Notes: generated by a model not told the origin, from the sequence alone. A stretch of 64,000 nucleotides of DNA from Rotaria sp. (GCA_905330235.1 CAJNUA010000046.1:311575-375574); one strand, 5' to 3'; positions 11,787 through 64,000 are shown, numbered from the stretch's first letter. Program-made: numbers and translations.

Positions 11787-11817
11787 GTGTGGGTGACGAA
11801 GAGACCCACGCCCACAA
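11787..11817. repeat. short head-to-head telomere-like pair (gtgtgggtg ... cccacgcccaca)
   Basis: Read directly; same G-then-C orientation as the other three loci. Confidence 0.4.
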
Positions 11818-15922: not shown

Positions 15923-17167
15923 TCATATAGGGAGCTTTGATCTTTCTAGAGAGGCGATTTGTAATAATTGTTTTTCCACAATCTTAGAATTCCGAAAATC
16001 ACTCTCAGTAAATGTTGCACCAAACAAATCAGCATTTGTCAAATTTGCGTGATTAAATATGCATTGTTTACAATTAGCGTATCGCCAGTCACTATGACTT
16101 AAATCTGCACCCGTAAAATTTCCATTGATTACTCTACTATATTTCATTGATGCTTTATGCATATATGCATTTGAAAAGGTAGTATCAATAAACACAGCAT
16201 GATCAAATATTGAATTCATTAATTTAGTTTCAATTAATGCACATTTCGTAAAATTAGTATAAGTACCATTAACATGATTCATAGCCGTCTGATAGAAATC
16301 AACATTTAGACCAAACTTTGATCGATATAAATTAGCATAATCAAGTTTTGCAAACATAAATGAAGAGTTTTCAATAGCTGCATTTTCTAAATTTACTTCA
16401 ATCATAGTAGTAGAATCAAATAAACAATTGAGACAGAAAAATGTATGTAAATTAGCATGATTCATTATCACACCAATGAAATCAACATTTTCATATGTAG
16501 CAGAAAACAATGAAGCAGATGTTAAATTTGCATTATTGAAAAACAATTTTGGAGAATTATGTCTAAGAGTACTCATCTCATCATCAAATGTTGGAGCATT
16601 TCGAGTCCAAGAAAAATCAGCATTAATAAGTACAGCACCATTAAATCTTGCACCGCGGATATTAATTTCATGAAAATTAGCTCGTATCATAATAGTACTT
16701 TCCAATGAAAGATGAAATAATACTCTTCGTTCAGATTCATCAATTAATTTTAAATCAGTTAAATTAGCGTATTCAAGTGAAACTGGTGGTCGATAATCGT
16801 CTGATCGATAGGTGATTAATTTAGCTTCATATAATAAACGAACGAGAAAATTTCGTCGAGCAGAATCTAGACGATTTAATGCTGAAAGAGTGGCAAAACG
16901 AGCGATAAGTGAAGCAGATGAACTTTTATTAAGTTCTGTACCATATTTTTCAATTAATTTACTTAATGTCTTTTGACATTCATGAAGAATTTGATCTTTC
17001 TGTTGATCATCGGCTATATCAAGGTCTTGTTTACGATTATGATTTGCTATTGCAAAATCACGGTTACTTTCTAATACAGTATAAACACCAATAGCGATAG
17101 GAATAGAAATTGATATGAATAATTGAATCCAACCAAAACATGAATGATTATTGTTTTTCTGTTCCAT
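15923..17167 (-). CDS. pentapeptide-repeat protein with N-terminal transmembrane helix, intronless, 414 aa
   Basis: TM segment GWIQLFISISIPIAIGVYTVL, then coiled-coil-like region. More than 40 consecutive A(N/D)LxxA/F-type pentapeptide units follow (ANLTNADLFGATFTESDFRNSKI, NHANLHTFFCLNCLFDSTTM...). Confidence 0.7.
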   Translation of the reverse strand: MEQKNNNHSCFGWIQLFISISIPIAIGVYTVLESNRDFAIANHNRKQDLDIADDQQKDQILHECQKTLSKLIEKYGTELNKSSSASLIARFATLSALNRLDSARRNFLVRLLYEAKLITYRSDDYRPPVSLEYANLTDLKLIDESERRVLFHLSLESTIMIRANFHEINIRGARFNGAVLINADFSWTRNAPTFDDEMSTLRHNSPKLFFNNANLTSASLFSATYENVDFIGVIMNHANLHTFFCLNCLFDSTTMIEVNLENAAIENSSFMFAKLDYANLYRSKFGLNVDFYQTAMNHVNGTYTNFTKCALIETKLMNSIFDHAVFIDTTFSNAYMHKASMKYSRVINGNFTGADLSHSDWRYANCKQCIFNHANLTNADLFGATFTESDFRNSKIVEKQLLQIASLERSKLPI

Positions 17168-40345: not shown

Positions 40346-41218
40346 TCATAGTATTAGAGTTTTAATCGTCTTATGGTTCGCGTTTACTTGCCGTATTGTT
40401 TCTTTTCCTTGATCACTGAATTGATTGCGTGCAAGATCCAATCTATTCAATGTTCGATTGATTTGTATCATCGCAACAATATTGTCGATACTTTTGTCTG
40501 AAATTTGATTCTGTCGAATATCAATGCATTGTAATACTTGATTCTCTTTTAAAGCCACACAAAAAGCTTGTATTCCTGCATCACCAATTTCATTGTAATC
40601 GAGAGAGAGCATCTTCAATGTTGTATTTGATCGAATCAACGAAGCTAATTCTTTTGCACTTACATCTGTCATACAAGTTCTTCCGATCTTCAATGTCGTT
40701 AAAGTTCGATTGTGTTGAAGAGCTTGAGCAATTAATGTTATTCCATTATCCGATAGTGGATTTGCGTGTAATAGTAAATTGATGACTGTTGAATTGGTTC
40801 GAAGCATTTCACTGATTGCTTGTGCACCAATCGCCGTTATGTGATTGTCTGTCAAGTTTAGATCAGCTATGGTCGTATTATATGTAAGTGAATTCATGAA
40901 AAGCGTAACTCCTCTATCTCCTAATGAATTACCGCATAGATGAAGAGCTTTCACTGCTGTATTAATTGCTAATGCTTCGAATAAATATTCAACACCGTCT
41001 TCATTAACCAGATTTTGACCAATTATTCTGAGAGAATTCCAAATTCTATTCGTTCTCAATTCATCTGCAATTAATTTTATATCATCATTAGATAAAGTAT
41101 TTACATAAAATGTTGCCGATTTGCATAAACGCATTTTTCGAATGAGTATCTCTAATTTTTCGTTTTCATATGTTGGTGTTGAATATTCTTCGATATCTTC
41201 GTCGTTAGTAGCAGCCAT
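40346..41218 (-). CDS. leucine-rich-repeat protein, ribonuclease-inhibitor (RNI/NLR-C-terminal) type, intronless, 290 aa
   Basis: Nine or more ~28-aa repeats of the L..L.L..N.I.D.G...L..AL..N..L type (LHLCGNSLGDRGVTLFMNSL, LSLDYNEIGDAGIQAFCVAL, LDLARNQFSDQG). Confidence 0.75.
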   Translation of the reverse strand: MAATNDEDIEEYSTPTYENEKLEILIRKMRLCKSATFYVNTLSNDDIKLIADELRTNRIWNSLRIIGQNLVNEDGVEYLFEALAINTAVKALHLCGNSLGDRGVTLFMNSLTYNTTIADLNLTDNHITAIGAQAISEMLRTNSTVINLLLHANPLSDNGITLIAQALQHNRTLTTLKIGRTCMTDVSAKELASLIRSNTTLKMLSLDYNEIGDAGIQAFCVALKENQVLQCIDIRQNQISDKSIDNIVAMIQINRTLNRLDLARNQFSDQGKETIRQVNANHKTIKTLIL

Positions 41219-44200
41219 TAATTGATGATTGTTGTTCTAAATTTCGTCTGAACTTTGTGAATGACTCAAAGCTCTTGAAAAAATTTTTAATAACGAATAG
41301 TAATTTGCAAAGTTTGTATATAAAGTAGCTTTTTTTGACGTTTATACGTGTAGTGTTTTTTTCTTTTGTTGCTATCGGTAATGTGTTATGCTTGTGTTGA
41401 ATGTTTATCGGTCGTCGTTGCAGTCATCTTTATCGCTTTTTTACCAATGCTATGAGTCATATCATCATACGTTCTACTGACATGACGAAGCAAATATTTT
41501 CATTGATTCATTCATTTTCTTTTTCATTGAGAAGAAATAACAAAAAAAATTGTTTTTTTTTTTTCTTCGATTTTGATGTCAATATTAAGAAAAAAATGAG
41601 TCTGAAATGGACCTGAATCATAACTTTGATGCAATATAATACAAGTGGTAATCCATAGAGGGATGAATCGATCACCTGAGTCATCACTAACAGACACTTT
41701 ATTTGCTTACTTTTTACATTTTTGATTTTATGAGATAAATTTGATAAATTTCGTATTGCATTTTTGACTAGAAAAATAATATTCGTTTTTATATGAGAAA
41801 AGCTGAAGCTATGTGAAACGTTATTTATCTAAATTATTACATATTCAAATTTAGGAAAAGCAAATTCCTTCCACAGTCATAAGATTTTATCCTGTCATAT
41901 AGTCAGAACCTTAAGCAAGATGGAAGACACAATTTGCAAAATTGTTTGGAGGGATAGTATGCCCAAAACGGTCAGTTTGTTTGTAGATCCTGCTATAAAT
42001 TTTCTTTCTTTTTATTTGTTTTCATATTTTGGTCATTTTTCTTCAATCAAATTCTATGTTACTATTCCGACAATTCCTATTTTAATCTATTAAATTTCTA
42101 ACAATGTGAGACATACTTGAACAGTAAGAGTTGACTGTAATATTGTGTTTCGCCCATTCTATAACAGCAACTTATGTACAGAGTGCATACATCTTATTGA
42201 CTTACGAAATAATGACTTAAGATTAAGAATGGCCCGTGTCCGACGATAAATCAATCGAAAATCGATTGATCTGCATCATCTAAGATACAGATTAATCTTC
42301 TAACCTCGATTCTGAATTTTCAGTAATCAATAGTATCGAAATAATTTAAAGCATAGGCAATGTGATTAATTAAAATAATAATTGAAGAAATGTACAGTTT
42401 ATAAACCGATGCATTTTGTGTTATTTAACCAAATATAAACACTCATCAGAGTTTTGTATTACCAGAAAGTGCAGAGGTCAAATAATGAAAGTTCAATAAA
42501 AGGAAGAAGAAAAAGGAAATGATGTCATCGAAATGGAATAACCATAGTAGAAAGTATAATTACCAAGACATCACGTAAAGATTGACAAAATTGAAGAATC
42601 AATAACAGTTGAATTAGACTAATAGGAAGTAGAAAACAAATCATATACTCAGTTATCAATTCGAATGTACGTATAAAAAATATCATCATTGAGTATGTGT
42701 TAATCGTTTTTGTCAATTGTGAATATGTCTTCTACTTAGGATCAGTACAATTCCATGGAACGTTGATTCAGCAAAGTATTCTTATCATGACGGATAATGT
42801 TTGGCTAGATATGTTACCATATTTGATCAATAGATAAAATAAATCAACATTATTTTGCCATGATCACTCGACAACTTTTGTTTACAAGGAAAATCCATCT
42901 TTTTTTTGTGTCATAGATTCTAATTTTGAGAAGTAAGTATTTAGTTAATACCGAATTTTAATAGTATTTGTGGAAACTACTCATAATTTAAGTCATTCTG
43001 AAATTTATTCAATAGCCATATGATTCGAAGTAACTCTCTTTCATCTCTCTCTCTATATATATTTCAAAGATAAAACAAAATCTATTGGAACGTATCCGCA
43101 TGGCAAATGAAATATTTTTCTTTATATACATTGGATGAATAACGTTGAATGATAAATATAGAGTATGGTTCGTATGATGGCTTGCGTTAAACAGTAGTAA
43201 AAGATTAAGAACATAGCCACAATTCAAAAACTGACTTAGACATAGAAACTTAACATTAATACAGAATTCAAGGTCATACCATCATTACCATCAACATAGA
43301 CAGTAGCTAATTACTTTCGCACTCATGATTAATGATACAATTGTAGCACTGCTTTGAAGTTGAGAGTCTTTTGTATACTGTCTTTTTTGAATTGCCATTT
43401 TTTGGAGTATGGATATTGCTAAAAGATTAGCCTATAGTCGTATGAATTTATTTATTGCTACCCGATGCGATACATTTTCCGCTATATATATTTAACATCA
43501 AACGGCGCAACCAGAAAGAAGTTGTATGAGTAGCTCAGTTTTCTGATAATGTCCATAAAGGAGGTTTAAGTCTTCTAGAGCGGAGGAGACAGTTCAACCT
43601 CTTTTAACCTTCCCTCTCCCCTCTGTCGTTACCGTCTGGCTGCGCTACTACTAATATCTACATCTATTTGTACTTTTCACTTGGAAATTAACAATACTCA
43701 AACGTCATGTTCGGTCTCTGGTCGAAGAATGAAAAAAAGTTGTATAACCAACGTTTCGAACTATTTTTCATTTAAGTATGTTTAATTACTTCCTTTTAGT
43801 GGTCTATTATTTAAAATCAAATGCGGATGGTATCACATAGATATGAGATAACTGGATGCTTCGCTTTTTTCTCTTTGACCATTATAAATACTGTACGTGA
43901 TAGTCGTATTTTTCTTTCGATCTTGCTCTTCAATAGAATATGTTGGGTTTCAATTTTTTCAACTCAGACCTGAACAAAACTAATCCGACAGATTCTACTC
44001 TTCAATGTATAATACTTATAGCTGCATGAAAAATGAATAAATATTATTTTTATATTTGGTAATTCATTTTAGTTATGTATTAAACGAGAATAATTGACTT
44101 TTCCGATGGTATATGATATCATATTGCTTTAGTAGTTATTTGTGATTCTAAATGAATAAGTATCATATCGATTCTGTAAACCTTAGAGATATTAAAATGT

Positions 44201-44283
44201 CTAAAATTGATATTATTGTTATCACTACCTAACTTAATAAGTTTAATAAGAAATTTTATTTGTTTATAAAAGAATTCAACTGT

Positions 44284-44837
44284 TTATGTTTGATTAATAG
44301 TAATCATTTTCACTTCATCATGATATTGCCAATAATCATTTATGTATCCTTCTTTAACATGTTTTAACAAAACGTTTCGTCGAGTATCACAATACTGATA
44401 CTTTTCGAATATTTTTCTTTTAATTTTATCGAGTACGATTTCTTTAGTTAAGTCTTGTTCTAAAAGTTCACTAAGTTCTTCACATATTCTTTCTAAGTGA
44501 GCTTGATTTTCTTCGAAAACAATCGATTGATTATTTTTTTCTAAATAATATGCAAATGGATAAGTATATATTAACGTTCGACGACAATTTAATAAAACAT
44601 TAAATGCTTTTTCAATGATTTGAATATCATTTTTCGATATTTGTTGTTCATTTCGAATTAGTTTTGGACGAATTTTTTCGAATAATTTCGATTCTAAATC
44701 AAATGAATGTTCATGATTACGAAAGCGGTCATAATAATGCATATATCGAGATAAAACAAGAGCGTATTGATTTTGCAATTCATCACTAATTTGATCTGCA
44801 TTGTAGCGATTGCATTCTGTATGTTTAGACCATTTGC
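44284..44837 (-). CDS. Ariadne-type RBR E3 ubiquitin ligase, exon 2 of 2 (end of RING2 plus Ariadne domain)
   Basis: Acceptor ttgttattaag|GCAAATGG; phase 1 matches exon 1. Encodes G-KWSKHTECNRYNADQISDELQNQYALVLSRYMHYYDRF...TLIYTYPFAYYLEKNNQSIVFEENQAHLE...* (compare ARIH1 WYNCNRYNE...RYMNH...[29 protein letters not shown]). Confidence 0.85.
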
Positions 44838-45689
44838 CTTAATAACAAACAGAGATAATATTGTATTTGTCATCGAAATGTCAGTGCATAGCGACAATGA
44901 AATATACAAAAATTCAAAATATTTATCACATCTATGTGGATGTAAAAAATACAAAGCATTATGAATATTATTTTACTTATCTTGACTCGCTTAGGTATTG
45001 GAAGCATTTAACAGAGTTTCTCAATTTTAGTATCTTTTTCAATTTTCTATTTCACAAGAAAATCTAATCAGCATAGTTTCTTTTAGACTGCTATGTAAAA
45101 TTGACTTATCCTTCTCACCTTAATTATACTAATAAAAAGAATGTGTAATCTAAAGTCACTCTAATGTAAACAGACTTGGAGGAAGTATAGGTACCCGAGA
45201 AATCCATTACTGTATGCGTTTCAGATACATTTTTCTTAGTTTTTATTGACTTTGTATTTTTAATCGTCTTATCGCGAAGTTATTATTTTACTGTATTAAC
45301 AAATAAGACTGGAGAACTCGACCGATATTACAAACGGTTTTTTTTGCAAAAAATATTTTCTACTCAATCTCGAAAGACAAGGGATTATGTAAAATTAAGC
45401 AAAACAAACTGACAAAGAAACGTTTGCGATTGATCAATCACTATTGCATTCGGACTCACGTCAGTGCATAAGGGATATTCCAGTAAGATATAAAAAAATC
45501 TCCAAAATATAAGTGCCATTGGATCTTCTGTCCAAAGTTATAATCATTTGGCCAGAATTTTACCCTTCGTCATGGTATATAGCAACAAATCGAATGATGG
45601 TACTTTGACATGATATTTCTTCTTACCAACAGATCTATTTGTCAGTAGAATGTTCTGAAGGTTTCAGCTCAAAAGAATAACGGGTGGGG

Positions 45690-46480
45690 CATCATAAATG
45701 ACCGCTTTTCGCATAACATGTTTTCATCAATTAGTGTGTGTTTTAAAAAAAAACAAAATATACCACAAGATGCGACGTGAAAAGCTCTACAGTTTACACA
45801 AGGCTGTTTTTTTTTATAGTTGCACGTTTTGCTTTCAAAGTGGTCAAAGTTTTGCACGGCCAAATTTTAACCATGCGAAAACGATGTTTTTTCGATGCAA
45901 AATGAATTCAGTTTTTCTCATTTCATCTTTTTATCACTTGATATCTTTTATTAAATAAAACAACAAAACATACCACTAGATGCAGCATGAAAAGCTTTAC
46001 AATTTACAAAGAACAGCTGATTTTACATTTGTATTTTATGTTTTAAAAATTGACAAAATTCTGAGCGATCCGATATCGACGCTGCGAAAAAGATATTTTT
46101 TGTCATATAACAAATTTGTTTTTTCTTATTTCATCACCTGATATCTTTTATTTAAAAAAGAAATAAATACATCACGAGATGCAGCGTGAAAAGCTCCATA
46201 ATCTAGAAAGCAAAGCTGATTTTAATTATGTACTTTTTGTTTCGTAAAAAAAAGCAAAGTTCTGTGGGACCATTTTTCGCACGCTTAAAATTTGGTCACG
46301 CAAAATTCTGACCACTTTGGAAGCAAAAAGTGCAATTATAAAAAAGTCAGTCGTATGTAAATTGTAGGGCATTTTACGCCGGATCTTGTGGCATAGTTTT
46401 TTTTAAATAAAACGTATTAATTGATGAAAACATGTAATGCGAAAAGCGGCCATTTATTATGCTTCACCTATTATTTCCTT
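45690..46480. mobile_element. foldback element, second related copy of the 7570-8570 family, inserted in the Ariadne intron
   Basis: Terminal inverted arms ggggcatcataaatgaccgcttttcgcataacatgttttcatcaattag (45697-45745) and taattgatgaaaacatgtaatgcgaaaagcggccatttattatgcttcacc (46418-46468). The ataccacRagatgcagcgtgaaaagctYYaca subrepeat recurs 3 times direct and once inverted. Inner inverted pair at 45835-45885 / 46270-46320. Degenerate extension to ~45560-46610. Confidence 0.6.
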
Positions 46481-47169
46481 CGCAGGATATTTAAGTTCCA
46501 AAAAACAGGAAATTCTAGCATCTTTCATGAAATATGAGTGATTTCTTGACACTATATTATCTCGAGAGAGAAATATTCTGTTAAGCTAGCATTTTCAAAG
46601 CATTCTACTGACAAGTAGACTTATCTATGGGCAAAATCTCAGATCGAAATATTGTCATCGGACTTGTTGGTATATACCATGACAGAGGCAAAACTTCCCA
46701 CAAAATACCTATAACTCTAGATAGAAAACCTAAGAGAACTTATTCTTTTGGGGTTATTCATATCTCATTAGAGCCTAGTTTATGCATGAAGTTCGAATTA
46801 AAAAATGATTGATCAGTTGAAAACGATCCTCTGTGAGTGAATGAAATCTTTTGCAATTTAATTGCCCTCTACATTACTGAATATTTAGTTCTGGTTGTTT
46901 CTCATTAGTGATTATGCATTTATAAGTAACATTACAATTATGAATATTTTTCATAATTGTAACTTTATTTGTCTGTGCTCCATTACTTCATACAATTTGC
47001 TGTTCTCATTAATATTTTTAAAAAAATCTTTGTTCTGCTTTTTACTTCTGCTTATCAGATCTGAGATCATAGTCAAACTCAAACTCAGGATTGCTGAATT
47101 ATAATCTAACAGAGTATGTATCATCCTTCATGTTCTGTAGTTTTTCATTGCAAAATTCATTGTACTTAC

Positions 47170-48232
47170 CAAAGCATAGCCAACAAAATTCATAGTTACA
47201 TTTTCTACATGTCATATGGTTACAACCACCATTCTTTTCAATATTTACTTTACATTTTGGACAAGTTTTTGTGTTAGCTTTTAACCATACAATTGTATGA
47301 CTATCATCAAGTAGTTTTTTATTCCATTGTAATAATAGAATACATTTTATTGGATCATGCCATGGTTGAGCACATTGAAAACAGAATGATGTTTGACAAT
47401 AATCACATGTAATCAATTGAGCATAATTATAAGCCGATGTAAGAGATGTTGCATTAATAATATGACCGCAATTTTTTCCTGGACACCAACGAGCACGAGG
47501 ATTATTATCTACATAGGAATTTAATATGATCTTTGTATAAATATGTTTAACGAATTCATTATTATCAAGGAATTTTGTGATAGTTTCATCATCAATAAGA
47601 ATTTCACATTGAGAATCTGGACAAACAATTGTTTGAGCAAGACCTTCATTAATAATTTGATTCATCAAATAATTTTTCCAACAATTATTACAAAATGTAT
47701 GTTTACATTCAAGACTAAACATTTCTTTTTGTTCATCGGAATAACAAATAAAACATGTACCAGTTGATTCATTTACAGAGGTTTTTTCAGCAAATGGATT
47801 AACAATTTTTGCTTGTTGAAAAAATTCATCATGATCAATTTCATAGAATTTTTCTAATAATCGTTGTTTATTCCATTTGAAATAATGCAATAAAAGTTTA
47901 ATAATAGTCGGTGGTAATTGTAGAATATCTTTTACTTCATCAACATAATTCATCATTAATTCAACATATTGATTTTGAGTTAAAATAGAATAATGAAAAT
48001 TTGGATTTATTTCATCAGATGGTGTTAATGGTTCATCAATATATGGTTGAATAGTTTCATGTTGAGTATCTTCAGGAATTTGATAAAAATTTTCGTCAAA
48101 TTCATCAGCAGGAGTTGATGGTTCGCTAGTTTTATTTTCTAATTCATTTTGTTCAGCGAATTTCGGCGAAACAGGTGATAATTCTGTCATATCATAATAG
48201 CATTCATCATCATCGGTTTCGGTTTCACTCAT
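47170..48232 (-). CDS. Ariadne-type RBR E3 ubiquitin ligase, exon 1 of 2 (acidic N-terminus, UBA-like region, RING1-IBR-RING2); full protein ~538 aa
   Basis: MSETETDDDECYYD...CFICYSDEQKEMFSLECKHTFCNNCW...CPGKNCGHII...CDYCQTSFCFQCAQPWHDP...CPKCKVNIEKNGGCNHMTCRKCNYEFCWLCFG. Donor CTTTG|GTAAGTAC at 47169. The 22 aa after CFG in the raw ORF are intronic read-through. Confidence 0.85.
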
Positions 48233-51506: not shown

Positions 51507-51819
51507 TTACATGAGATTACAAATAACTGATGTTGGATTTAATTTATCGTCAGTTTTATATGGTATGTAGACTTTAATTTCTTCGAGAAAAGTAAGGTAG
51601 TCCTTCAAACTGAGTGCCAAAGTTAGTTGAGATCTAGCAACGTCTTCTTTTAATGAAGAAAACATAGCTTGTTGGCCTGCTTGGCACATATCATAAACTT
51701 TATGCAGTAAATGACCGTTCATCCCTTCGAAAGCTAGTAGAAGAATACTAAGTTCTTTATCAAGAAGAAACGATTTGACATGATCTTTAGTCCACATATC
51801 GATACAATGTGGATATTCC
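51507..51819 (-). CDS. TIR-SAM (SARM1-like) protein copy 1, exon 3 of 3: SAM domain, stop
   Basis: Acceptor ttttattgcag|G. Encodes (V)EYPHCIDMWTKDHVKSFLLDKELSILLLAFEGMNGHLLHKVYDMCQAGQQAMFSSLKEDVARSQLTLALSLKDYLTFLEEIKVY...NLM* with a SAM-like W..V..FL....L..F.GMNG..LL pattern. Phase 2 matches exon 2. Confidence 0.75.
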
Positions 51820-52369
51820 CTGCAATAAAACAAACAATGAATTATATGTTCATTTGATAAAATGTTCAAGTTTTCCTTTATTAAACAGAAGTATAAACCA
51901 ATGTATAGATAATCAAGAACGATTAAAAATACACTAGTAGAAAATTTGACACAGACATTCTAAAAATTGATCCTCGAGATTAACAACTCTTAAAACTCTA
52001 CTTCCTCTTTTGGTATCCTGGTGGTGGTAGCTCAGCCGATTAGATTACACTTTTAATAAGGGTCAGTACAATATTTCTGAGATTTATCAAGTAGAAATTT
52101 CCATCTCAATAAATGTAAATTTGAATAAGCATTGCGCTGTTGTTCAGTTGACACAAATGTTACAAACATGATGCTTTTTTTCAGATTTCTAAGAATTCAG
52201 TAAGAAATACAGACAACACCTGTTGGACATTTCCGTCACAATTTATACTATATCTCATCTCAAATCATCAAGATCTCTGTATTTTATAAAAAGAACTTTC
52301 ACAACAAGTTTTCAAGGTTTCTTTTCAGTAGTTTAATACTTCTAACTCTCATCTTTAAAACAGACTTAC

Positions 52370-53225
52370 ACAACTGGATGTAGTTCTTTATTATTTTCAA
52401 CACTCGGAATTGTTTTCGGTGTATTATCCACTAAATAACTTGGATTATGCTGAACTTGATCTTGTTCAATAAGTGTTGAATTTGAATTATTCATTCGAAA
52501 TAGGCCAATCTGTTTCTTAAGTTCTTGATAAGCTTTATCAAAACCAAGCTTTGGAAAATCAACATAAATAAGTGCTGAAGTTAATACTCCAAGCCATCCA
52601 TCAGCTTTATAGTTGGTTGTCATCACTATTGGAATAATATGACAACGACGTTTAACTGCATAACTAGCTTCCATTTCACAAAAAGGACTCTGTTTGTAAG
52701 CATCAGACATACAAACAAGTACAAATTCTGCATTTTCAATAGCTTTAGCCATAGCATCAAATGTAGCACCATGCATCAATCGAGAATCAATCCAAACACG
52801 TAATTGATCTTTCTCAAGAGAATTTAGAATTCGATGACAAAGTTCTTTATCATTATGTGAATAACTTATCATAATATCATATTGTTTTTTGATTATCGTC
52901 GATGAAGAAATTGAAGAAGATTGTTCTTGAACTGTTTTGACTGTTGTTTCTGATTCTTTTTCTAATTTCCATATCAATGCAGTAGATACTAATTGTAGAT
53001 CTTGTTGTGGTGATGAAGTCAATGTTCGAACATGATTCATAAAAATGTCGTTGCCTTTGAGTATAGCAGCAAAGTCTTTGTTGAAAGCTAATGCAAGAAG
53101 AATTTGAAGTGCAGGAAGTTTTGCTTTGAGTGGATTGAATTGATCTTCGAGAGCACATCGAAGAAAAAGAGAGTGACCTTCTTGTTTGATTAATTCTTCA
53201 CGAATTTGATCATGCTGTGTTAATA
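52370..53225 (-). CDS. TIR-SAM (SARM1-like) protein copy 1, exon 2 of 3: linker plus TIR domain
   Basis: Acceptor tatttag|TATTAACACAG, donor GTTGT|GTAAGTCT. TIR domain DIMISYSHNDKELCHRILNSLEKDQLRVWIDSRLMHGATFDAMAKAIENAEFVLVCMSDAYKQSPFCEMEASYAVKRRCHIIPIV, with a Glu in FCEME aligned to the SARM1 catalytic Glu (KDWVHKEIV). Confidence 0.8.
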
Positions 53226-53683
53226 CTAAATAGAAAAAAGAAACACCAGTTTCTCAATGTCTATCTTAAAAAAAAACCTTTCTGATGCAATTTAAAAGAA
53301 AAAAAAAAAGAAATGCTTTCACTTCAACACATATAATATGTTACTTTAACTAAAGAAGGATCATACATTTATAAAGTCTAATTAGAATATTATTGTAAAA
53401 CAACATGGTATCAGACGAGTTGCTTTGTTAACTTAGATTGAAAGTTCAATAGATAGAATGAATCTATTCAAAGAATTGTTTTCACAGCTAGAGTTTGTTT
53501 AGAACAATAAAATGATTAAGTATCACACGTTTGATGAACGTAAGTGTTCTCAAAGAGTATTTTGCTAGTTTTACTGCTTGATGATGTACTCACTACAAAT
53601 AGTTGTGTTTCATCTAACTGAGCGGAAAAAAATTGCTTTTACCTTAATGTCTTACGTATGAAGAAAAGAGCTTAAAAACTCAC

Positions 53684-54458
53684 CTTTAAGACTTCGAAGA
53701 CTATTATGTAGACGACCTTCCGTTCGAATACCTCCATCAATAACATTTTTAATAAAAGTAATAAAAACAGTAGCAATTCTACTCGAATTTTGCAGTTGTT
53801 TTATATCTTCTTCTCCCATAATAACTGCTAGAATTCGATAGGCTTGTAAATGAATTTCATCATCATTATCTGATGTTCGTATAAGTACATTCATGAGATC
53901 GACTAACTGAAGGCTTTTAAGATAAATAACAAGCTCGCTGTCCAAAGTAAAATAGAAGAGAATTTGAAGAAGTTGTTGAACAAGAGGTATACCAGCTGGA
54001 TCTATTGTTACTTGATTTGATTCATTGACAAACATTAGAATACGTTTGATAGTATCAGCAATGCGTCGACATGTATCGCGCGTTTCATCACTAGTAATTA
54101 CATCACCAAGATCCATTCGAAATAATAGGTTAGTTATATGTAGTAGAATATTTATCATAGCTGAATTCCATTTGACATATGGTGGTCGACCAGTATAATT
54201 CTCACTAAGCCAGGTATTGAACCATTTGAGATGAGTACGTCGAATTCGTTCAATTATCTCTTGACGTCGATTACCTTCATACCAAGTAATTTGGTTTGGA
54301 TAATGCGTAAGCATAGTAAGCTCTTCATTTGAAAGAGAATTGGACTGTTCTTTAGCAACTTTTTCGAACATTTGTGTATACGTAGGAGAGCAAACTTGAT
54401 CAACAGATCTAGCTAATGTCTCGTTAAACTCTGTGCAGACAAATGCCATTGTTAACAA
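53684..54458 (-). CDS. TIR-SAM (SARM1-like) protein copy 1, exon 1 of 3: ~258-aa alpha-helical (ARM/HEAT-like?) N-terminal domain; total protein ~647 aa
   Basis: MLTMAFVCTEFNETLARSVDQVCSPTYTQMFEKVAKEQ...LRSLK. Donor AAAG|GTGAGT; phase 1 completed by exon 2. Confidence 0.7.
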
Positions 54459-57400
54459 CGTTTATTCATGAAAAAAATGTTTTAACGTGATGAAATAAAT
54501 AAAAAGTAACGTATTTTAAAAGGACATATATCAAGCTTATATTTTTATTTTTCTTGACGACAAAGTCTATATTAGCAACATACAGAAAGAAAAAGAAAAT
54601 GTTTCACGTTGTAGAAATTTCAACCACAATGAAATTCTTAACGTGTCGTTCACGTTGATTTTTGTTACAGAAGTTGTGAAATGACGGCAAGAAAAAAAAA
54701 CTCCTCTATCACCCTTCCTACAGCCATAAATACAGAACGTATAGAAAATAAGTAACTACTTCTCTTCAAGACAAAACAATACATTTACTATAAACAGAAG
54801 TAGATGGTTGATTCGAGTTAGAATATAAGTGAAGACGAAAGAACTTAAGTAAATCATTATACTTAACTAAAAACAACGTTTAACATTCAAAGACAGAAGT
54901 TTAATAATCAAAGCTATGATTTCAATGTTTTGGTTAGTTCTGATTAATTAAATTAATTAGTATCATCAATAACATTATCAAATCATTCGTGGACTTAATT
55001 TAATCTTCCTCAAAATAGTGTATTTAAAGTTCGATCTTGCTGTTCAGATAGACGAGCATTAGTAGTAGCTTTACAGCTGATGATCGCTGTTTTCATATCA
55101 TTAGTCTGTATTAAGAGATCATTTTTTAGGGAAATCATTAGTTTCGACTGTAGATATTTCAATTATGTTCTTATGATAAATTGTTTCCAATATATTTTGT
55201 TGACGCTCATTAAATATTCAAAATACTATTTAGAACTTTGGCGAAAGTTGATAAATATCATTAATGTGCTTTTTCTCAATTTTCCGATTGTTCATTGGAG
55301 ATATATGGGTACAAAGCCTTTCGTCTCGCTTTTCTGGTACTTTAACACAGTGCGATATCTTCGAACCTTCTTGTTGTGGTATCGTCGTCATCAAATGTTC
55401 TTTTCTGAATTCAGTGCATACTATCTCTTAAAGTATTCGTTTATTTTAATAACCTGCCTAGTCATTGCAAGATAGTTTCTACATATGCAAGACCTTCAGT
55501 ATCGGTTACCTCTTATTTTTCTGCAAATTTCGAATATCACTGTAGGCTATTTCTTTTATACACCTAATATCCGTTATTTTTCAAATAAATATCTTATTTT
55601 CTACAACCATACTGTGTGAGTCATCCACAAGGAAACTAAGATATTGAAATACTATCATATATGGTGGTAACTCCTTTGGTTTTCAAGGAATTTTTAAAAT
55701 ATAATTTTATAATATGTTTTACAAGTCTGGAAACGTTTATGCATGTTCTGATCTCTAAATTTATGCATTTTGTGAATTGAAAACAAATCAATCCATATTC
55801 AAAAACGGCCTTTAACTAATATGGCAGAATCTGTTTCGCAATCACTTTAATGATTTTCAGCTCATTTTCAATTTACATTATAATTCAACCTAAGTTTCTC
55901 TTTTGTTTTATTTGATTACTTATAGAGAGAGAGACTATTTTGCATTTTCTCATTTATTTCCGAAATGATATTTATCTCCCAAATCTTCATTTATATTTGA
56001 ACTCAAAAATTCATGATAACCATAGTTGATTACAGAATTTTGTTCTGTTTTTAATAATGGAACGATCCGAAACATCAGATTTTTCTCGTGATACAGATGA
56101 ATATATCAATCAAATGAGCCAATTTTCAAAATGAAAATGAAGCATCACTTTTTATTTTTAATCTTTTTTATAATTTATTGTTTTTATTCAAACTACTGCT
56201 TTTTTCTCATAAAGTGACTTATTGTAATCATTGAATAAAATATTGACTCAAGGAAATTTTGTTACTATTTAGAATAGCACGTTAATTTCTTTGCCATTAA
56301 AGTAAATTATTAAATAACACTTGATCGATTAATCAATTTGAACCAACGTCAAATAAGAATTATATTGCAAATGTGAACTAATTTAATTTGGCTTTTCGAA
56401 CTTCCCAATGATGATGATATATTAAAGTCGAAATTCGATCTAGAGAGTCAGCAAGATAAACAAGTCTAAGACATGCAGATCAGATTGAGATATCGACATT
56501 TTACTAGGTTTTTCAATTCGCGCAAAATTTGAAGTCGAAACTCGATAGTCAATTTTCCACGTGATCTGAGAGAGACCATAGGTTTTTGTTGAAAAACCCA
56601 GTACAATTTTGATATTTGATGAACAAAGGCCTGGAGAACCAAACCATTCGAGATTTGTCTACTACTCACTAGTACTACTCAAATGAATGCTGTCTCAGTC
56701 GAACAGCAATTTGACACTTGAAGAGATTTTCCCGTAAGTTTTCATCGAAACACCGCATAGAACTCATTATCGTAATAGAGTTGATTACTGAAATGAATCC
56801 TCATATTTTACAAGCGTAATTTGTATTGATGCGTCATTTATGAATAGTTTTATATAATTGTAATAACCTACTTTCACATGAAAATGAAAAATTTTCTAAT
56901 CTATGAAAAAGCTATCCGCATAATTCTAAGCTTATTATTAAAATTGACATCATATTAGGCTTGTGTTTTTGTGCTATTTTTCTTAATATGTTATTGTGGT
57001 TACAAAGCTGAAAACATTTGTGTTTATAATTAATCCTGATCTGTTTTATTTTTCATTAAGTATTATCTGACTATTATAATCTGTTCTAAGATTCAATTGA
57101 AACACATGTGATGTGTCACCTATCATGAACTATAATAACTATGACATTGGGACGAATGCTCGAAAATAAGATGATATCATCTATTATGCTCATGAATCAG
57201 AAAATCATAATAAATTATATTTGAAAGATCCAGAAAAAAAATTTAACATGAACAATTGTCAATGGTTCATAATCGATGATGCCGATATACGGACTACATA
57301 TATAGAGTTCCATGATACTTGTTGTTGATCTATTTAGAAAAATTTAGAATGATCAATGAAAAACGTCAGACACATCCAATTCAAATATAAATTTTGCGTC

Positions 57401-58283
57401 AAGTTAAAACATATTTCATAGCATTGATGTAAATCAGTCAAGAATATTTAGCTTTCGTCTACTGTGAAACATGGTCTAAAAAGAGTGCTGAATGTATATC
57501 AATGACGACTCATTATTATATATTGCATTTCTAGAAGATGAACTAAAAGAATGGTGAAAAAATGTGTCTGAAAGTAGATTGAATAAAACAATTTCTCAGT
57601 GATTAGTCATAGCTGTTACAACGTGTTTTACATTCTAATGCTGCAAGGGTTGCTCTAGCAACTTTGTTTTTGTTACCATAAAAACAACTGTTTTTGAATT
57701 CATATTGAATTTTCATCTACCATGTTCTTTGCAATTAGCGTTAAAAAAAACTATTAATCGTCATCAAACACCGACTTTCATTATTTTCTTTCTTCAACGA
57801 TTATGAAGTTTACAAAACATTATCATTCACAAAAACCTAGCACTTTTACTATTCAAAACTTTTAAGTGTCGTATATGTTCATTGATAATCTAGAAAACAA
57901 TTTATGATTACATCAAAGATAAAACTAATTTTATATATATTCATAATTTTTGTAAAGTTTTTACACTAAATATATTCCATAAGATGCGCATTCTTATAAT
58001 ATTCTACTTCAATAGAGGTCTTCTTTGGCTTATCTATCTGCTAATTGATATATTCTATGGAAATTTCTTCAGTCTTCTCAAAACCATTATGATATTCTGC
58101 TCGCTTTATTTCATCTGTATTCCTGACATTAAACGGTAACGTAAATAAAAAATATGTGATGCGATTCCAGTGTTCAATATACATTTATGAAAATCAGATG
58201 TGTAATAATAGAAGAATGAATAAAATTAGAATGGTCACTAATGTGTACAAAAAACAAATGACTTTGACGAAAAATACCATAAG

Positions 58284-58593
58284 TCACATAAGATTGCAAA
58301 CGCTCGATGCTGGATTCAATGAATTGCTAGCTGTAAATGGTATGTAGATTTTGATTTCTTCGAGAAAAGTAAGATAGTCTTTTAAACTGAGTGTTGCACG
58401 CTGAGATCTGTTAACATCTTCTTTCAGTGATAAAAACATTCCTTGTTGGTTGGCTTGACACATGAAGTAAGCTTGATGTAGTATTTTTCCGTTCATTCCT
58501 TCCATAACAGGCAAAAGTGCATCAAGCTCTTTATCAAGAAGAAATGATTTCACATGATCTTCAGTCCACATATCAATACTATGTGGATATTTC
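58284..58593 (-). CDS. TIR-SAM (SARM1-like) protein copy 2, exon 3 of 3: SAM domain, stop
   Basis: Acceptor ttttttgtag|G. Encodes (V)KYPHSIDMWTEDHVKSFLLDKELDALLPVMEGMNGKILHQAYFMCQANQQGMFLSLKEDVNRSQRATLSLKDYLTFLEEIKIY...NLM*, ~75% identical to copy 1. Confidence 0.75.
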
Positions 58594-58791
58594 CTACAAA
58601 AAAAAACAATAATTGCTTAACTTGGCATCATTCGGTCTATAATTATGGCTTTCTCATAAATTATGCATTAGATTCATGACGATGAATGGAAGACAAAATA
58701 AATTCACTAAACGTTACTCTCTACACTAATAGTTATAAAGAAGAGTAGCTCATGTCTAGAATGACAACTCCCATCGTTAAAATAGACTTAC

Positions 58792-59647
58792 ACAACTGGA
58801 TGTGGTTCTTTATTATTTTCAACATTCGGAATTGTTTTTGGTGTATTATCCACTAAATAACTTGGATTATGCTGAACTTGATCTTGTTCAATAAGTGTTG
58901 AATTTGAATTATTCATTCGAAATAGGCTAATCTGTTTCTTAAGTTCTTGATAAGCTTTATCAAAATCAAGTTTTGGGAAATCAACATAGATAAGTGCTGA
59001 AGTTAATACTCCAAGCCATCCATCAGCTTTATAGTTGGTTGTCATCACTATTGGAATAATATGACAACGACGTTTAACTGCATAACTAGCTTCCATTTCA
59101 CAAAAAGGACTCTGTTTGTAAGCATCAGACATACAAACAAGTACAAATTCTGCATTTTCAATAGCTTTAGCCATAGCATCAAATGTAGCACCATGCATCA
59201 ATCGAGAATCAATCCAAACACGTAATTGATCTTTCTCAAGAGAATTTAGAATTCGATGACAAAGTTCTTTATCATTATGTGAATAACTTATCATAATATC
59301 ATATTGTTTTTTGATTATCGTCGATGAAGAAATTGAAGAAGATTGTTCTTGAACTGTTTTGACTGTTGTTTCTGATTCTTTTTCTAATTTCCATATCAAT
59401 GCAGTAGATACTAATTGTAGATCTTGTTGTGGTGATGAAGTCAATGTTCGAACATGATTCATAAAAATGTCGTTGCCTTTGAGTATAGCAGCAAAGTCTT
59501 TGTTGAAAGCTAATGCAAGAAGAATTTGAAGTGCAGGAAGTTTTGCTTTGAGTGGATTGAATTGATCTTCGAGAGCACATCGAAGAAAAAGATAGTGACC
59601 TTCGTGTTTGATTAATTCTTCACGAATTTGATCATGCTGTGTTAATA
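58792..59647 (-). CDS. TIR-SAM (SARM1-like) protein copy 2, exon 2 of 3: linker plus TIR domain
   Basis: Same splice sites as copy 1; 856 nt, ~97-99% identical to 52370-53225 (only a few aa differences, e.g. GFDKAY vs DFDKAY). Confidence 0.8.
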
Positions 59648-59921
59648 CTAAATGAAAAAAAAATTATAAGTTTGTAAATGAGTGCGTTAGAAAGTATTTG
59701 GAGAGAAATTTATAATATGTCTAATTTTCAAAGTATATGCTGTTATAGCTATAGAATCAATATAAGGATTTTCTTTGGATCTTGTATTTACTAGGTGTTT
59801 CCTAATATATCGGTTGAATGAAAATTCGTTATTAAGATGATATATTCATCTAAGAGAATAGAAGAATTTTTTTGTTTTTTTTAATCATCATCATCCGTCG
59901 AAGAAGACAACTAAAACTAAC

Positions 59922-60696
59922 CTTTGAGACTTCGAAGACTATTGTGTAAGCGAGCTTCATAGGGAACGCCACCATCAATAGCATCCTTAATAAAAGTAAT
60001 AAAAACAATAGTAATTCTACTTGAATTCTGCAGTTGTTTTATATCTGCTTCTGCCATAATAACTGCTAGAACTCGATAGGCTTGCAAATGAATTTCATCA
60101 TCATTATTTGATGTTTGTATAAGTGCATTCATGAGATCGACTAACTGAAGATTTTTAAGATAAATAGCAAGTTTACTATCCAAAGTAAAATAGAAAAGAA
60201 TTAAAAGAAGCTCTCGAACAACAGGTATAGCAGTTGTATCGATGGTTATCGGATTCGATTTGCTGATGTTCAGCAAAATACATTTGATAGTATTTGTGAT
60301 TTGTCGAAAAGCACGACGCGTTTCATTGCTAGTAATAACATCATCGAGATCCACTCGAAAGAATAAGTTAGTCGCATGTAGCATGAGATCATTCATAACT
60401 AAACTCCATTTGAAATACGGTGGCAAGCCAGTATATTGTTTACTTAACCAACTATTGAACCATTTGAGATGAGTACGTCGAATTCGTTCAATTATTTCTT
60501 GACGTTTATCTCCTTGGTACCAAGTGATCTCGTTTGGATAATACACGAGTACAGTACGCTGTTCGTTTGAAAGATTATGAGGCTGTTCTTTAGCCACTTT
60601 TTGAAACAATTGTGCATATAAAGGAGAACAAACTTGATCAACAGCTCGAGCGATTTCCACTGTGGATGCTGTAGAGTTCTCAGTCATTGTTAACAA
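59922..60696 (-). CDS. TIR-SAM (SARM1-like) protein copy 2, exon 1 of 3: divergent N-terminal helical domain
   Basis: MLTMTENSTASTVEIARAVDQVCSPLYAQLFQKVAKEQ...LRSLK. Donor CAAAG|GTTAGT. Same 775-nt length as copy 1 exon 1, ~70% aa identity. Confidence 0.7.
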
Positions 60697-63102
60697 CGTT
60701 TATGTCTTACGAATTGTTAAAATATAATATTGCAACGCCAATAAGAAAAGAAAAAAAAATCTTACTTTTCTTTTTACGTTGATGCCAAGACGATGCAACA
60801 GAAAATCGACAGAAAGAAAATATAAACGTATCATGATATAAAATCTTCAGGCAAGATAGAATGTTAAACCTTTCTTCAGCTTTGCGTGTCATGCAGAAAT
60901 TATGAAATGATGTTAAGAAGAAAAAAAATTATATCTTCCACTACACTGAGTACCAAAAGATGCATCAAAGGAAATAGAAAACAATCGTTTCTCTACAAGA
61001 TAAACATAATCAAATTACTTATACACAAAATGATTTATAACTAAAGCTAGTAGTCAATATTCATCTTTTGAGAAATGAAAAGCAATTCTTTATTTTTTCA
61101 AGGTTACGCCATTTTTGTTCGGCAATGATATACTTGACGTCTTTAACCAAGTGCAATCTTAACAGGATTTATCTGTCATATACAATAGCAATGTCAAGTT
61201 TCTTTTTTTTTTTTAATTGGAACAGATTAGCAAAACTCACTGAAGAAGCAATTAAAGTTTATCCATAAAAGATATCTAGACAATTAGAGAGAACGGGAGG
61301 ATCCATCAAAACTGGGCGAATCTGCACAGAGCAGAGGAGGATAAATATCTCTAGATGTTCAAGACATCTACTGCGAATATTTTTCTCTTTTACCACACAA
61401 CTTTCTGCAAAATTTTCAGTTAGAAGAGCATATCTAAATAGGAAATAAGTTGAATATGAATCAAGGGTTTCCTACATAAGTTCTGAACTTCAACAAAAAA
61501 ATTAGTTTATAGGTAAACAAAGAATTATTACTATTCTACTATATCGATATGAGCTTCGAGTACTTAGGGCGATGTTTTCAATAGCATATTATCCGATGAC
61601 ATTATCCCTTTTAATAATACTGATATAAACAGAAAAAACGTGATAGTTAAGATCTTCAATTCGACCAGTATTTTTTTTTTAGAAACTTAAATGTGCTATG
61701 ATTTCATTGTATGTAAAGTAACAGAATTATACAAAGCGATATGTTGATGTAGGTATGGCTATTCTCTGTACTTGCACCTTAATTATCAGGTTTCTTCTAT
61801 TTATCTCACTATTATTCAAAGAGATAATGTCATCGGATAAGATGCCATTCAAAACATTGTCCTAAGTAGTCGAAGTCTATATAAATATATTTCGGTGAAG
61901 ATCACTCTTTGTTGACATATTAACTAATTTTGTTGAGGTTCAGAACTAATGGGATGGCCTTTATGGTGTTGAAATAATTGAAGATTATGTTACATAAGCA
62001 GGTATCTATTTCGTGAAGCAGTTATATGAATGTTGTTATATTGTCGAGGGCCATTGGTATTGAACTTCATTTTTTGTTTTTACTATTTTTGATTCGTTAA
62101 AATTCTATGCGTTTAGAAAACAAAAACTTTGCAATAGGTTAGATTTTTGTTTGTTGTTTATGCAATATGTGTTTTGTAGAGTTTGGTGATGCCAAAAGTC
62201 ATCCGAAATCGAAACCACAGCTTCGAGTGCTAAAAATGAGAAGAAAAAAAACGGTTCTGATTCAATTTCCAATATATTACATAGAACCTAAATCATTAAA
62301 TCATAAGATAAATACGAACAATTTAAATATATTTTCAAGAAATTGTCATTATTGAATTTGTTGAGATTAAAGACGCCATATATTTCAGTACTTAAGCAAA
62401 ACAAGATTATACACATATATTGTGAATTATGTAATCTCAAGAATAAAAAAAGTGAAGATTTCTCGATATAGACTTGAGAATTTTTTGTATCTATCTGAAG
62501 ATTTTATGCATCTGGTTCCAAGAAATTTGTAAAAAGTTTGTTCTAGTTCGATTCCAGTTTTGTTTTGGAACCATCGAACTCTACTGTTTTGTCTCGTTTT
62601 CTTCATATGTATATATTCATTTCTATGTTTAATATATCTGTTTAATAAACTGTTATTTAATAAAAAAAAGAAACAATATATTTGAACAAGCAGGCTCTTT
62701 GTGGAAAGTTTTTTTTTCTAGTGAACGTCCAGAAGGAGAGAGGATTGGTGAAAAAATGTCATTCTTACCTGAACATCTTTTATGTATGATTCCTTATTAT
62801 CTAACCATCCATGAAACACATACTATCAACGCAACTTTCTAATGCTTATATTATATTTAAGACATCATTTACATCTATTAAGGTGAGAAGATACGACGAT
62901 TTATGACAAGCATCAACTCTAGAACTTCAATTGTGTCTATTGATAATTAAGGGGAAAAATATATAATTTCAGACTACTAGAATATTAACCAATCCAAAAT
63001 ATGATTAGTTTATCTAATATCCGAGTTAGTTTTCATCATAGAAAGTGTGAATGAGAGCAATATTCTGGATTTTATTTAAAAAAATAACAAAAAAAAAAAG
63101 AT

Positions 63103-64000
63103 TTAAAAACTTGTTACATTTTCATCAAAATCTTCATCAAAAAGTTCTTTTAGAATTTTTTTTCGTTTAATCGATTCAATATATGCTCGATTTTCTACCA
63201 CATCAGGATGAGAAGGTGATAATGTTTTTAAAAATTGTTCAGTTGATTTTTCTACGCTCTCTATAGCTTCATCCAATTTTCCTTGACTTGAATAAACAAG
63301 TGCTACATTAAAAAGTGTTATCCCAACTAATGAATGATTTTCTGGTAAAGATATTGATGCAATTTCAAGACTTTTAAAATAACTTTTTAATGCATCTGAA
63401 TATTGTTCTTCTCGATAATACATTAAACCAATATTATTATAAAGTAATGCAAATGATGGATGTGTTAATGGTAAATATTCTTGTTGACATTCTAAAGCAA
63501 GTTTTAAATAAGTCAATGATTCATGAGATCGGCCAATTTTTAAATAAACATTTCCAACAGTATAATACGAAGAACCTAATGTACTAGGATTACGTGGTAC
63601 AATACGTTCTTGAATTTCAATTGATTTCTTATAGTAATATAAAGCATCGTTATATTTAAGTTGTACAAGATATGTATCACCTGCATTATCATAAGCTAAT
63701 GCAAGTTCATTATCATGTGGTTCAGTTACTTGTTCAAGAATTTTTAAAGTACGTTGAAATGATTTAATAGCTTCGGAATATTTTCCTTGTTTTGACAAAA
63801 TAATGCCTATATTATTTGTATAATTACAAATAGTAAGTAAATCTGGAGTGTTTGAACGAAGTTGTACACCAAGTGCTTTTTGATAATATTCATGAGATTT
63901 TTCACAATTATCTAGACGTAAATACATTCCAGCAATATTACCATAAAGTGAAGTTAATTCTAACGTATTGGGTGACATAAATCGAAGAAATGCATCTAAT
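63103..64000 (-). CDS. TPR-repeat protein (kinesin-light-chain-like TPR array), C-terminal part; ORF continues upstream beyond the window edge
   Basis: Seven or more 34-aa TPR units (AGMYLRLDNCEKSHEYYQKAL, YDNAGDTYLVQLKYNDALYYYKKSIEI, YNNIGLMYYREEQYSDALKSYFKSLEI, LFNVALVYSSQGKLDEAIESVEKS). Stop at 63103. The frame stays open from 63978 to 64000, so the N-terminus (possibly an NB-ARC or other domain) is outside the window. Confidence 0.75.
   Translation of the reverse strand, partial: LDAFLRFMSPNTLELTSLYGNIAGMYLRLDNCEKSHEYYQKALGVQLRSNTPDLLTICNYTNNIGIILSKQGKYSEAIKSFQRTLKILEQVTEPHDNELALAYDNAGDTYLVQLKYNDALYYYKKSIEIQERIVPRNPSTLGSSYYTVGNVYLKIGRSHESLTYLKLALECQQEYLPLTHPSFALLYNNIGLMYYREEQYSDALKSYFKSLEIASISLPENHSLVGITLFNVALVYSSQGKLDEAIESVEKSTEQFLKTLSPSHPDVVENRAYIESIKRKKILKELFDEDFDENVTSF

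Follow-up and report, generated by a model that had tools for sequence, protein, structure and literature searches.

Evidence for recurrent interlocus gene conversion of a single internal exon in a tandem pair of ARM-TIR-SAM genes of the bdelloid rotifer Rotaria sp. 'Silwood-2'

Background

Interlocus gene conversion that acts on only one segment of a pair of duplicated genes, so that this segment evolves in concert, is a known process, with examples in long-lasting mammalian gene pairs (PMC2720389), in Caenorhabditis paralogues (PMC3966223) and in CEACAM paralogues (PMC7042247). Here we describe two genes, designated A and B, that lie in tandem in a 64,000-nucleotide stretch of DNA (assembly GCA_905330235.1, CAJNUA010000046.1:311575-375574; hereafter the window), which protein matches assign to the bdelloid rotifer Rotaria sp. 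'Silwood-2', and that encode proteins with an armadillo-type (ARM) domain, a TIR domain and a SAM-fold domain. The locus resembles the described cases in having a bounded tract within which the paralogues of one species are closer to each other than the orthologues of different species are, flanking exons and introns that retain the true age of the duplication, copies that are close, tandem and in direct orientation, and tracts of hundreds of base pairs. It differs from them in its bdelloid host, in a tract that coincides almost exactly with one internal exon, and in being kept in parallel in three species. Our preferred explanation, to which we give a probability of about 0.88, is an old tandem duplication followed by recurrent non-allelic (interlocus) gene conversion of exon 2. 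Bdelloids are ancient asexuals, and conversion between homologues has been much discussed in them.

The encoded proteins also recall SARM1 and TIR-1, NAD+ hydrolases with the architecture ARM-SAM-SAM-TIR, in that all three domain types are present, the N-terminus is of ARM type and the TIR domain carries a Cys-x-x-Glu motif. The architecture itself is not matched, since A and B have the order ARM-TIR-SAM with one SAM domain. SARM1 has N-terminal mitochondrial targeting, in place of which A and B have a C-terminal CaaX-like box. Orthology of A and B to SARM1 was rejected, as the domain order differs and the family profiles, when compared with all Protein Data Bank (PDB) sequences, gave no match to SARM1; a profile of the ARM domain alone gave nothing meaningful among PDB sequences at E<=10.

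In the TIR-NLR clusters and paired receptors of plants, signalling domains are homogenised and recognition domains diverge. A and B are like such immune-receptor clusters in having a conserved, exchanged effector module beside diverged modules, in their tandem arrangement, and in belonging to a large lineage-specific expansion. They are unlike them in having no NB-ARC or LRR domain, in having part of the presumed sensor domain inside the homogenised exon, and in showing no sign of diversifying selection on the N-terminus, the ratio of nonsynonymous to synonymous differences per site (pN/pS) being 0.25-0.47. A role in immunity is conceivable for the family by analogy with these clusters.

Results

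Gene models and identity between the two copies

Genes A and B lie on the minus strand of the AT-rich window (~30% GC), offset by 6,422 bp, and each consists of three exons with an uninterrupted frame, GT..AG introns throughout and intron phases that match between the copies. Exon 1 of gene A (53684..54449, 766 nt, ATG at 54447-54449), as defined by translation and splice sites, encodes N-terminal armadillo-type helical repeats (amino acids [aa] 1-255). Exon 2 (52370..53225, 856 nt, aa 256-541) is bounded by AG/GTAAGT and encodes the last armadillo repeats (aa 256 to about 350), a linker, the TIR domain and a low-complexity tail, while exon 3 (51507..51819, 313 nt including the TAA at 51507-51509) encodes the SAM-fold domain and, at 51510-51521, the codons of the C-terminal CaaX-like box CNLM. 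The corresponding features of gene B are exon 1 at 59922..60687 (766 nt, ATG at 60685-60687), exon 2, homogenised with that of A, at 58792..59647 (856 nt), and exon 3 at 58284..58593 (310 nt including the TGA at 58284-58286), again with a SAM-fold domain and a C-terminal CNLM box (codons 58287-58298). The segment coding for the TIR_2 domain of Pfam is 52519..52875 in gene A (aa 373-491) and 58941-59297 in gene B. No copy of the gene pair beyond A and B was found in the window by tblastn. The spliced product of gene A (644 aa) is identical to NCBI entry CAF3866533.1, annotated on a 66,289-bp contig. For gene B (643 aa in our model) the NCBI entry CAF3866512.1 has 638 aa because its exon-3 acceptor lies 15 nt downstream of the site homologous to that of A, and it thereby omits the residues KYPHS (window 58579-58593); the extra AG in exon 3 arose through a Cys to Ser change (TGT to AGT) in B.

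Identity between the two copies is concentrated in exon 2, where 846 of 856 nt (98.8%) are the same. Exon 1 aligns without gaps at 603/766 nt (78.7%; 70% at the aa level), exon 3 at 75% of nucleotides with lengths one codon apart, and the introns (458 vs 274 nt and 550 vs 198 nt in A and B, respectively) cannot be aligned. The spacer between the genes (54450..58283) likewise gives no alignment to the sequence flanking the other copy, except for one 119-bp match of 67% upstream of both start codons (54582-54700 vs 60809-60926). Using blastn and the list of mismatches at fixed offset, the high-identity tract was delimited to 52344..53259 in A and 58766-59680 in B, with 97.7% identity over 916 bp and one gap. 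It runs slightly beyond the exon on both sides: 23 of the 26 bases of downstream intron next to exon 2 are shared, and identity reaches a short way into the upstream intron (about 34 bases with one gap). Of the ten differences within exon 2, all at its edges, two are close to the 5' end and the other eight fall in the final 200 nt, which leaves a perfectly identical segment of 603 bp (A 52568..53170; B 58990-59592 at the offset of 6,422 bp) that spans the C-terminal ARM repeats, the linker and most of the TIR domain, including the codon for Glu441 (52669-52671). When the 246 differences were shuffled over the 1,929 aligned coding sites, the longest identical run obtained in 5,000 permutations was 102 bp.

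Synonymous divergence (dS) between A and B, estimated by the Nei-Gojobori method, is 0.53 in exon 1 (63.8 differences over 168 sites), 0.022 in exon 2 (4 over 181.5) and 0.92 in exon 3 (32.5 over 61), and the pN/pS values given above indicate purifying selection on both proteins. A recent duplication of the whole gene was rejected on this dS evidence.

A first-pass annotation, made from the DNA sequence before this analysis, had already described two three-exon genes in the same orientation 6.4 kb apart, with TIR exons at 52370-53225 and 58792-59647 that were 97-99% identical even at synonymous positions, about 25 nt of shared downstream intron and SAM exons at about 75%, all of which the present models bear out, with exact agreement on the TIR-exon limits. 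Other details needed adjustment. Identical exon lengths hold for exons 1 and 2 and not for exon 3; the figure of about 70% for the N-terminal exons is the aa identity and not that of nucleotides; introns and spacers had both been called unalignable, which is true of the introns and, apart from the 119-bp upstream match, of the spacer; and position 60696, given as the gene limit, is the upstream end of the open frame, the ATG of gene B beginning at 60687. The same annotation had proposed an old duplication with later conversion restricted to the TIR exon, and had named dS per exon and the related species as the places to look. Divergence among the exons is far from uniform, and the species comparison that follows found the same syntenic pair in R. 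sordida and R. sp. Silwood-1 with exon 2 grouping by species, so that per-exon dS and cross-species trees both agree with the proposal.

Comparison with related Rotaria species

Silwood-2, R. sordida (locus L003, with B at 10001-12269 and A at 14954-17497, and locus L005 from a second assembly) and R. sp. Silwood-1 (loci L004 and L006) all have these genes in the order TPR - B - A - Ariadne-type RBR E3 ligase. Neighbour-joining trees were constructed for each exon with 300 bootstraps. In the exon 1 tree the A copies of the different species form one clade and the B copies another, both at 100%, and the exon 3 tree likewise has an A clade at 98% and a B+C clade at 100%, where C is a dispersed paralogue. 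In the exon 2 tree, by conflict with these, the A and B copies of the same species pair with each other at 100% in each of the three species. Because the exon trees conflict in this manner, the duplication must predate the split of the three species and exon 2 must have evolved in concert in each lineage.

Divergence estimates give the same picture. Between species, orthologue dS is 0.26-0.36 in exon 1 and 0.23-0.48 in exon 3, and that of exon 2 is 0.21-0.34 whichever copies are compared; between A and B within a species, exon-2 dS is only 0.022 in Silwood-2, 0.019 in Silwood-1 and 0.11 in R. sordida. The proportion of synonymous differences (pS) between orthologues is 0.20-0.25 in exon 2 and 0.20-0.35 in exons 1 and 3, and since exon 2 equals the other exons in this respect, synonymous constraint is excluded as the cause of its identity.

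Two further observations concern these trees. Within the A clade Silwood-2 joins R. sordida (93%, exon 1), and within the B clade it joins Silwood-1 (97% in exon 1, 93% in exon 3), a conflict that could possibly come from differences in rate, from sorting of old alleles or ohnologues, or from undetected exchange. In the dispersed paralogues C and D (L007, L009 and L010), exon-2 dS is 0.32-0.5 as compared with 0.5-0.9 in exons 1 and 3; exchange of exon 2 may once have extended beyond the tandem pair to these genes.

At the syntenic locus of R. socialis (L008 8847-11667, between the TPR and Ariadne genes) there is only one gene, and it is more divergent. In exon 1 it is closer to B (68% vs 64% aa identity), and its exon 3, with 103 codons like that of A, is nearer to A (75% vs 64%). 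The placement of this exon 3 is ambiguous, as aa identity and nonsynonymous divergence (dN) favour A and neighbour-joining on all sites favours B/C. The gene may be a B/A hybrid produced by unequal crossing-over, or it may be an early-diverging copy.

Anatomy and direction of the converted tracts

In Silwood-1 there are 6 differing sites in the 774 nt of exon 2 that were compared, with an identical core of 562 bp. Exon 2 of R. sordida is a mosaic, in which alignment columns 0-376 are near-identical, differences are clustered in columns 377-401 and 548-629, columns 630-733 are identical, and columns 734-873 differ by 21%, the level of unconverted sequence; this calls for several events, each converting some 100-400 bp. 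In Silwood-2 the edges of exon 2 are ~4% different and the core 0%, and we therefore read the exon as the product of older events covering the whole of it, followed by a younger event in the core.

The direction of exchange was approached through sites at which B differs from A. At columns 388, 396, 591 and 595 there are B states (residues SDK[T/K] and KCQC) that are common only to the R. sordida B copy and the syntenic gene of R. socialis; they occur in no A, C or D copy, nor in the B copies of Silwood-1 and Silwood-2. These shared states look like relics of the original B-type TIR, and their loss in the two Silwood species suggests that A-type sequence replaced the B-type exon there (direction A to B).

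A second haplotype or individual of Silwood-2 was sampled as a B copy (L012, GCA_905332185.1) and as truncated A exon-1 models. Its gene B region is 99.06% identical to window 55880-62561, and its intron 2 has a 21-bp insertion. Compared with B of the window, it has 11 differences in the 856 nt of exon 2 and one in the 1,076 nt of exons 1 and 3 (Fisher p = 9e-4), and 5 of the 11 exon-2 differences have the state of the A copy. This pattern fits continuing exchange, although mutations newly arisen in one haplotype would be another explanation.

Assembly quality

The Silwood-2 assemblies were made from Illumina reads of whole-genome-amplified single animals, using SSPACE, GapCloser and RaGOO (Nowell et al. 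2021, PMC7943196). A second short-read assembly of Silwood-2 (GCA_905330805.1, L011) is 100% identical to the window over 22,494 bp (window 41507-64000), tandem included. In a further one, GCA_905329745.1, a 777-kb contig is >99.8% identical to the window on both sides and jumps from exon 2 of B to exon 2 of A (L001 10001-12759, CAJNSZ010000042.1), and the 6,422-bp unit omitted there is found as a separate 6,480-bp contig (L002, CAJNSZ010005932.1). Collapse of the tandem at the identical exon probably accounts for two protein models from that assembly, the chimeric P0001 (CAF2497293.1), which joins B exon 1 and exon 2 to A exon 3, and the truncated P0002, which consists of A exon 1 and exon 2. 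A second B-exon 1/A-exon 3 hybrid model, P0078, occurs in another Silwood-2 assembly. Silwood-1 contigs end within A exon 2 in two assemblies, and breaks and collapses at exon 2 are the behaviour expected of a long near-perfect repeat in a short-read assembly. Of the 14 Silwood-2 proteins in the two clusters to which A and B belong, none shows a divergent exon 2, and in R. sordida both copies are resolved inside single contigs in two assemblies. We take the near-identity of exon 2 to be real, and its exact 100% core could be slightly inflated.

Protein architecture and family

In both proteins Pfam detected TIR_2 only (aa 373-491, E 1.4e-21), and neither a SAM nor an ARM domain was detected by Pfam from sequence in either of them. 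An AlphaFold (AF2) model was built on 41 family members, with a mean predicted local distance difference test (pLDDT) score of 78.8. It contains a helical-repeat domain at 1-350 (pLDDT about 90), the TIR domain, a disordered linker at 504-537 and a C-terminal helical bundle. An ARM fold for the N-terminus is supported by Foldseek, with a probability of 1.0 to designed ARM proteins, importin-alpha, beta-catenin and APC, and the top ten matches for this domain include hSARM1 (7anw) and C. elegans TIR-1 (8p2m). The C-terminal domain (about 547-625) is a five-helix bundle of the SAM type. The order is accordingly ARM (1-350), TIR (373-491), a single SAM (about 547-625) and CaaX. The 'SARM1-like' label of the first-pass annotation can therefore be retained for domain content and not for domain order, number of SAM domains or sequence match. 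Its description of conversion as limited to the TIR effector exon is right in that exon 2 is the only homogenised exon, and incomplete in that some 95 armadillo-domain residues come from this exon as well; likewise the N-terminus that it took for a diverging sensor does diverge, under purifying and not diversifying selection, and the C-terminal part of its ARM domain is homogenised.

Cys438 and Glu441, which form the C-x-x-E motif, are invariant in the 41 family members, and Glu441 aligns with the conserved TIR glutamate. That glutamate is catalytic in NADase TIRs, yet it is also kept in the non-catalytic TIRs of TLRs. Compared with PDB sequences, the family profile matches the TIR domains of Cat1, TLR, RPS4 and MyD88. 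A cysteine stands at position -4 in 18/20 aligned family members (CNLM, CTLI, CKLM, CNVL, CSLM and others), and the CNLM of both genes has the make-up of a CaaX box, namely Cys at -4, an aliphatic residue as the second following one and a terminal M, L or I, which suggests C-terminal prenylation and membrane anchoring. Judged by domain content, the products of A and B are probably TIR proteins that oligomerise and are anchored in the membrane, and they have a conserved glutamate where NADase TIRs have their catalytic residue.

A profile of the N-terminal domain matched 375 clusters at 50% identity among 1.84 billion representatives. Among the clusters checked, every named one is from a bdelloid (Rotaria, Adineta or Didymodactylos), and most have a TIR domain. 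These genes belong to a bdelloid-specific ARM-TIR expansion, possibly SARM1-like in action, with regulation by the ARM domain, oligomerisation by the SAM domain and the TIR domain as effector. No prior description of a bdelloid ARM-TIR family was found in the literature searched, in which bdelloid TIR domains receive only passing mentions.

Neighbouring genes and other features of the window

The neighbours of the pair (window 40346-48232 and 63103-63978) are a TPR-repeat protein gene upstream of B and an Ariadne-type RBR E3 gene downstream of A, which is followed by a gene for an RI-type LRR protein. Elsewhere, window 15923-17167 contains on the minus strand an uninterrupted open reading frame (ORF) for 414 aa of pentapeptide repeats (Pfam PF00805, E 9e-31), in an animal genome whose genes otherwise contain introns. 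It is a candidate horizontally acquired gene; such genes are common in bdelloids. At 3175-4103 there is an imperfect GT-rich tandem array with periods of 27/87/129, lying in a long ORF; both strands have open frames there, and GC content and GC skew are locally elevated. A further imperfect array with periods of 19/48/67 is located at 10597-10891, inside a long ORF. Both arrays are probably low-complexity coding repeats.

Discussion

Proposed mechanism

We propose that a tandem duplication of an ARM-TIR-SAM gene preceded the split of Silwood-2, Silwood-1 and R. sordida, and that the copies have since exchanged sequence repeatedly through non-crossover break repair templated by the paralogue 6.4 kb away. 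Non-crossover conversion is preferred over unequal crossing-over because the exchange is recurrent and exon-bounded and leaves the flanks unscrambled. Exon 2 would be the only stretch long and similar enough for strand invasion, and as the flanking introns differ in length and cannot be aligned, the heteroduplex would stop at the limits of the exon. Such a process is likely to be self-reinforcing, every conversion renewing the identity that enables the next. Exons 1 and 3 have fallen to 75-79% identity, and purifying selection now acts on them separately in each copy. Tolerance of desiccation is found in R. sordida, Silwood-1 and Silwood-2 and not in R. socialis, which has one gene at the locus; on the strength of this one phylogenetic contrast it might be speculated that break repair after desiccation could drive the exchange.

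Several observations weigh against this explanation or against its strict form. In R. sordida an allele of A exon 1 (P0074, compared with P0072 at aa ~185-212) carries the substitutions M, V, Q and T that match R. sordida B. This patch, observed at the protein level, looks like a short B to A conversion outside exon 2, so that conversion is not absolutely confined to that exon. There is no signature of GC-biased conversion, the GC content of third codon positions being lowest (0.16) in exon 2. The A copy of exon 2 in Silwood-1 is known only from contig ends, and de Bruijn collapse during assembly could inflate the identity of the core. Finally, conversion in exons 1 and 3 may also be selected against, on top of the limit set by homology, in which case the boundary would be selective as well as mechanical.

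Alternative explanations

The most direct objection is that two diverged copies of exon 2 were collapsed to one consensus that was then used twice. The Silwood-2 data, with Illumina reads from amplified DNA, gap closing and reference-guided scaffolding, are of the kind in which this may happen; GCA_905329745.1 does skip from exon 2 of B to that of A and leave the unit on its own contig; and in L012 the 'perfect' core carries 4 private differences. However, a collapse presupposes near-identity, as copies 20% apart would assemble apart, and the 14 Silwood-2 cluster members include no divergent exon 2. The copy-specific edge differences are contiguous with unique introns on both sides, the tandem is identical in a second Silwood-2 assembly, and the resolved copies of R. 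sordida still carry common species-specific substitutions. An artefact would at most lift the core from about 98-99% to 100%, and we regard it as a highly improbable source of the pattern. Still harder to credit is an account without conversion, in which exon 2 is held by stronger constraint that extends to synonymous sites through splicing enhancers, RNA structure or codon bias. It draws on the fact that exon 2 is the most conserved exon of the family at the protein level, and that dS of exon 2 is somewhat reduced (0.32-0.5 vs 0.5-0.9) in the dispersed paralogues C and D too, but it is at odds with the equal orthologous pS of all three exons, with changes that are common to both copies in each species and place them in species clades at 100% bootstrap, and with the match of 23/26 bases in the adjacent intron. 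Pure synonymous constraint, contradicted by the between-species dS, was rejected.

Repeated unequal crossing-over within exon 2 by non-allelic homologous recombination (NAHR), or a single recent replacement of the exon, would also make the two exons alike. The B-exon 1/A-exon 3 hybrid models of two Silwood-2 assemblies (P0001 and P0078) and the single gene of R. socialis, with exon 1 nearer to B and exon 3 nearer to A in aa identity, could be taken as its products, and NAHR could plausibly produce an occasional deletion between the copies. Yet NAHR would scramble the orthology of exon 1 or 3, both of which are strictly orthologous in the three species, and the unit that the hybrid contig lacks is present as a separate contig in the same assembly, which points to collapse; a perfect core with ~4% edges, together with the mosaic of R. 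sordida, needs several short events and not one. We consider these routes very unlikely. A different matter is whether conversion affects the whole gene, with converted exons 1 and 3 purged by selection for distinct sensing and SAM oligomerisation, and identity of the TIR tolerated or favoured. The B-type patch in the R. sordida A exon 1 allele shows that conversion is possible there, both copies are under purifying selection in three species, and the most similar A/B blocks of exon 1 would still permit short tracts. Homologous repair needs a sufficient identical stretch, the minimal efficient processing segment, and exons 1 and 3, at 75-79% identity and with no long perfect runs, are poor substrates for it; unalignable introns are moreover a sufficient mechanical explanation of where the tract ends. 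Selection of this kind is a tentative addition, rather unlikely on balance, and it refines gene conversion of exon 2 rather than being an alternative to it.

Beyond its origin, the identity of exon 2 might be kept as useful, if a shared module of C-terminal ARM repeats and TIR let the paralogues co-assemble in one TIR signalling or NADase complex, to which the diverged N-terminal ARM and SAM domains would give different inputs and oligomer specificities. We hold this to be improbable; if true, it would make the pair an animal counterpart of the paired TIR receptors of plants, within a family of several hundred ARM-TIR genes confined to bdelloids.

Conclusions

Gene conversion restricted to a segment is well known as a process, and this case and its gene family appear to be undescribed in the literature searched. 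One practical consequence is that the homogenised exon breaks or collapses short-read assemblies and has yielded a chimeric B-exon 1/A-exon 3 protein and a truncated A model in the databases. The locus draws attention to an undescribed bdelloid expansion of ARM-TIR(-SAM-CaaX) genes, in which the domain set of SARM1 is reordered and whose members are candidates for TIR/NAD+-based signalling or defence. It also represents non-allelic conversion validated across species in a bdelloid, a group in which recombination-like processes lie at the heart of the long-term asexuality debate. Loci of this kind could act as naturally occurring reporters of ectopic repair in an ancient asexual lineage.

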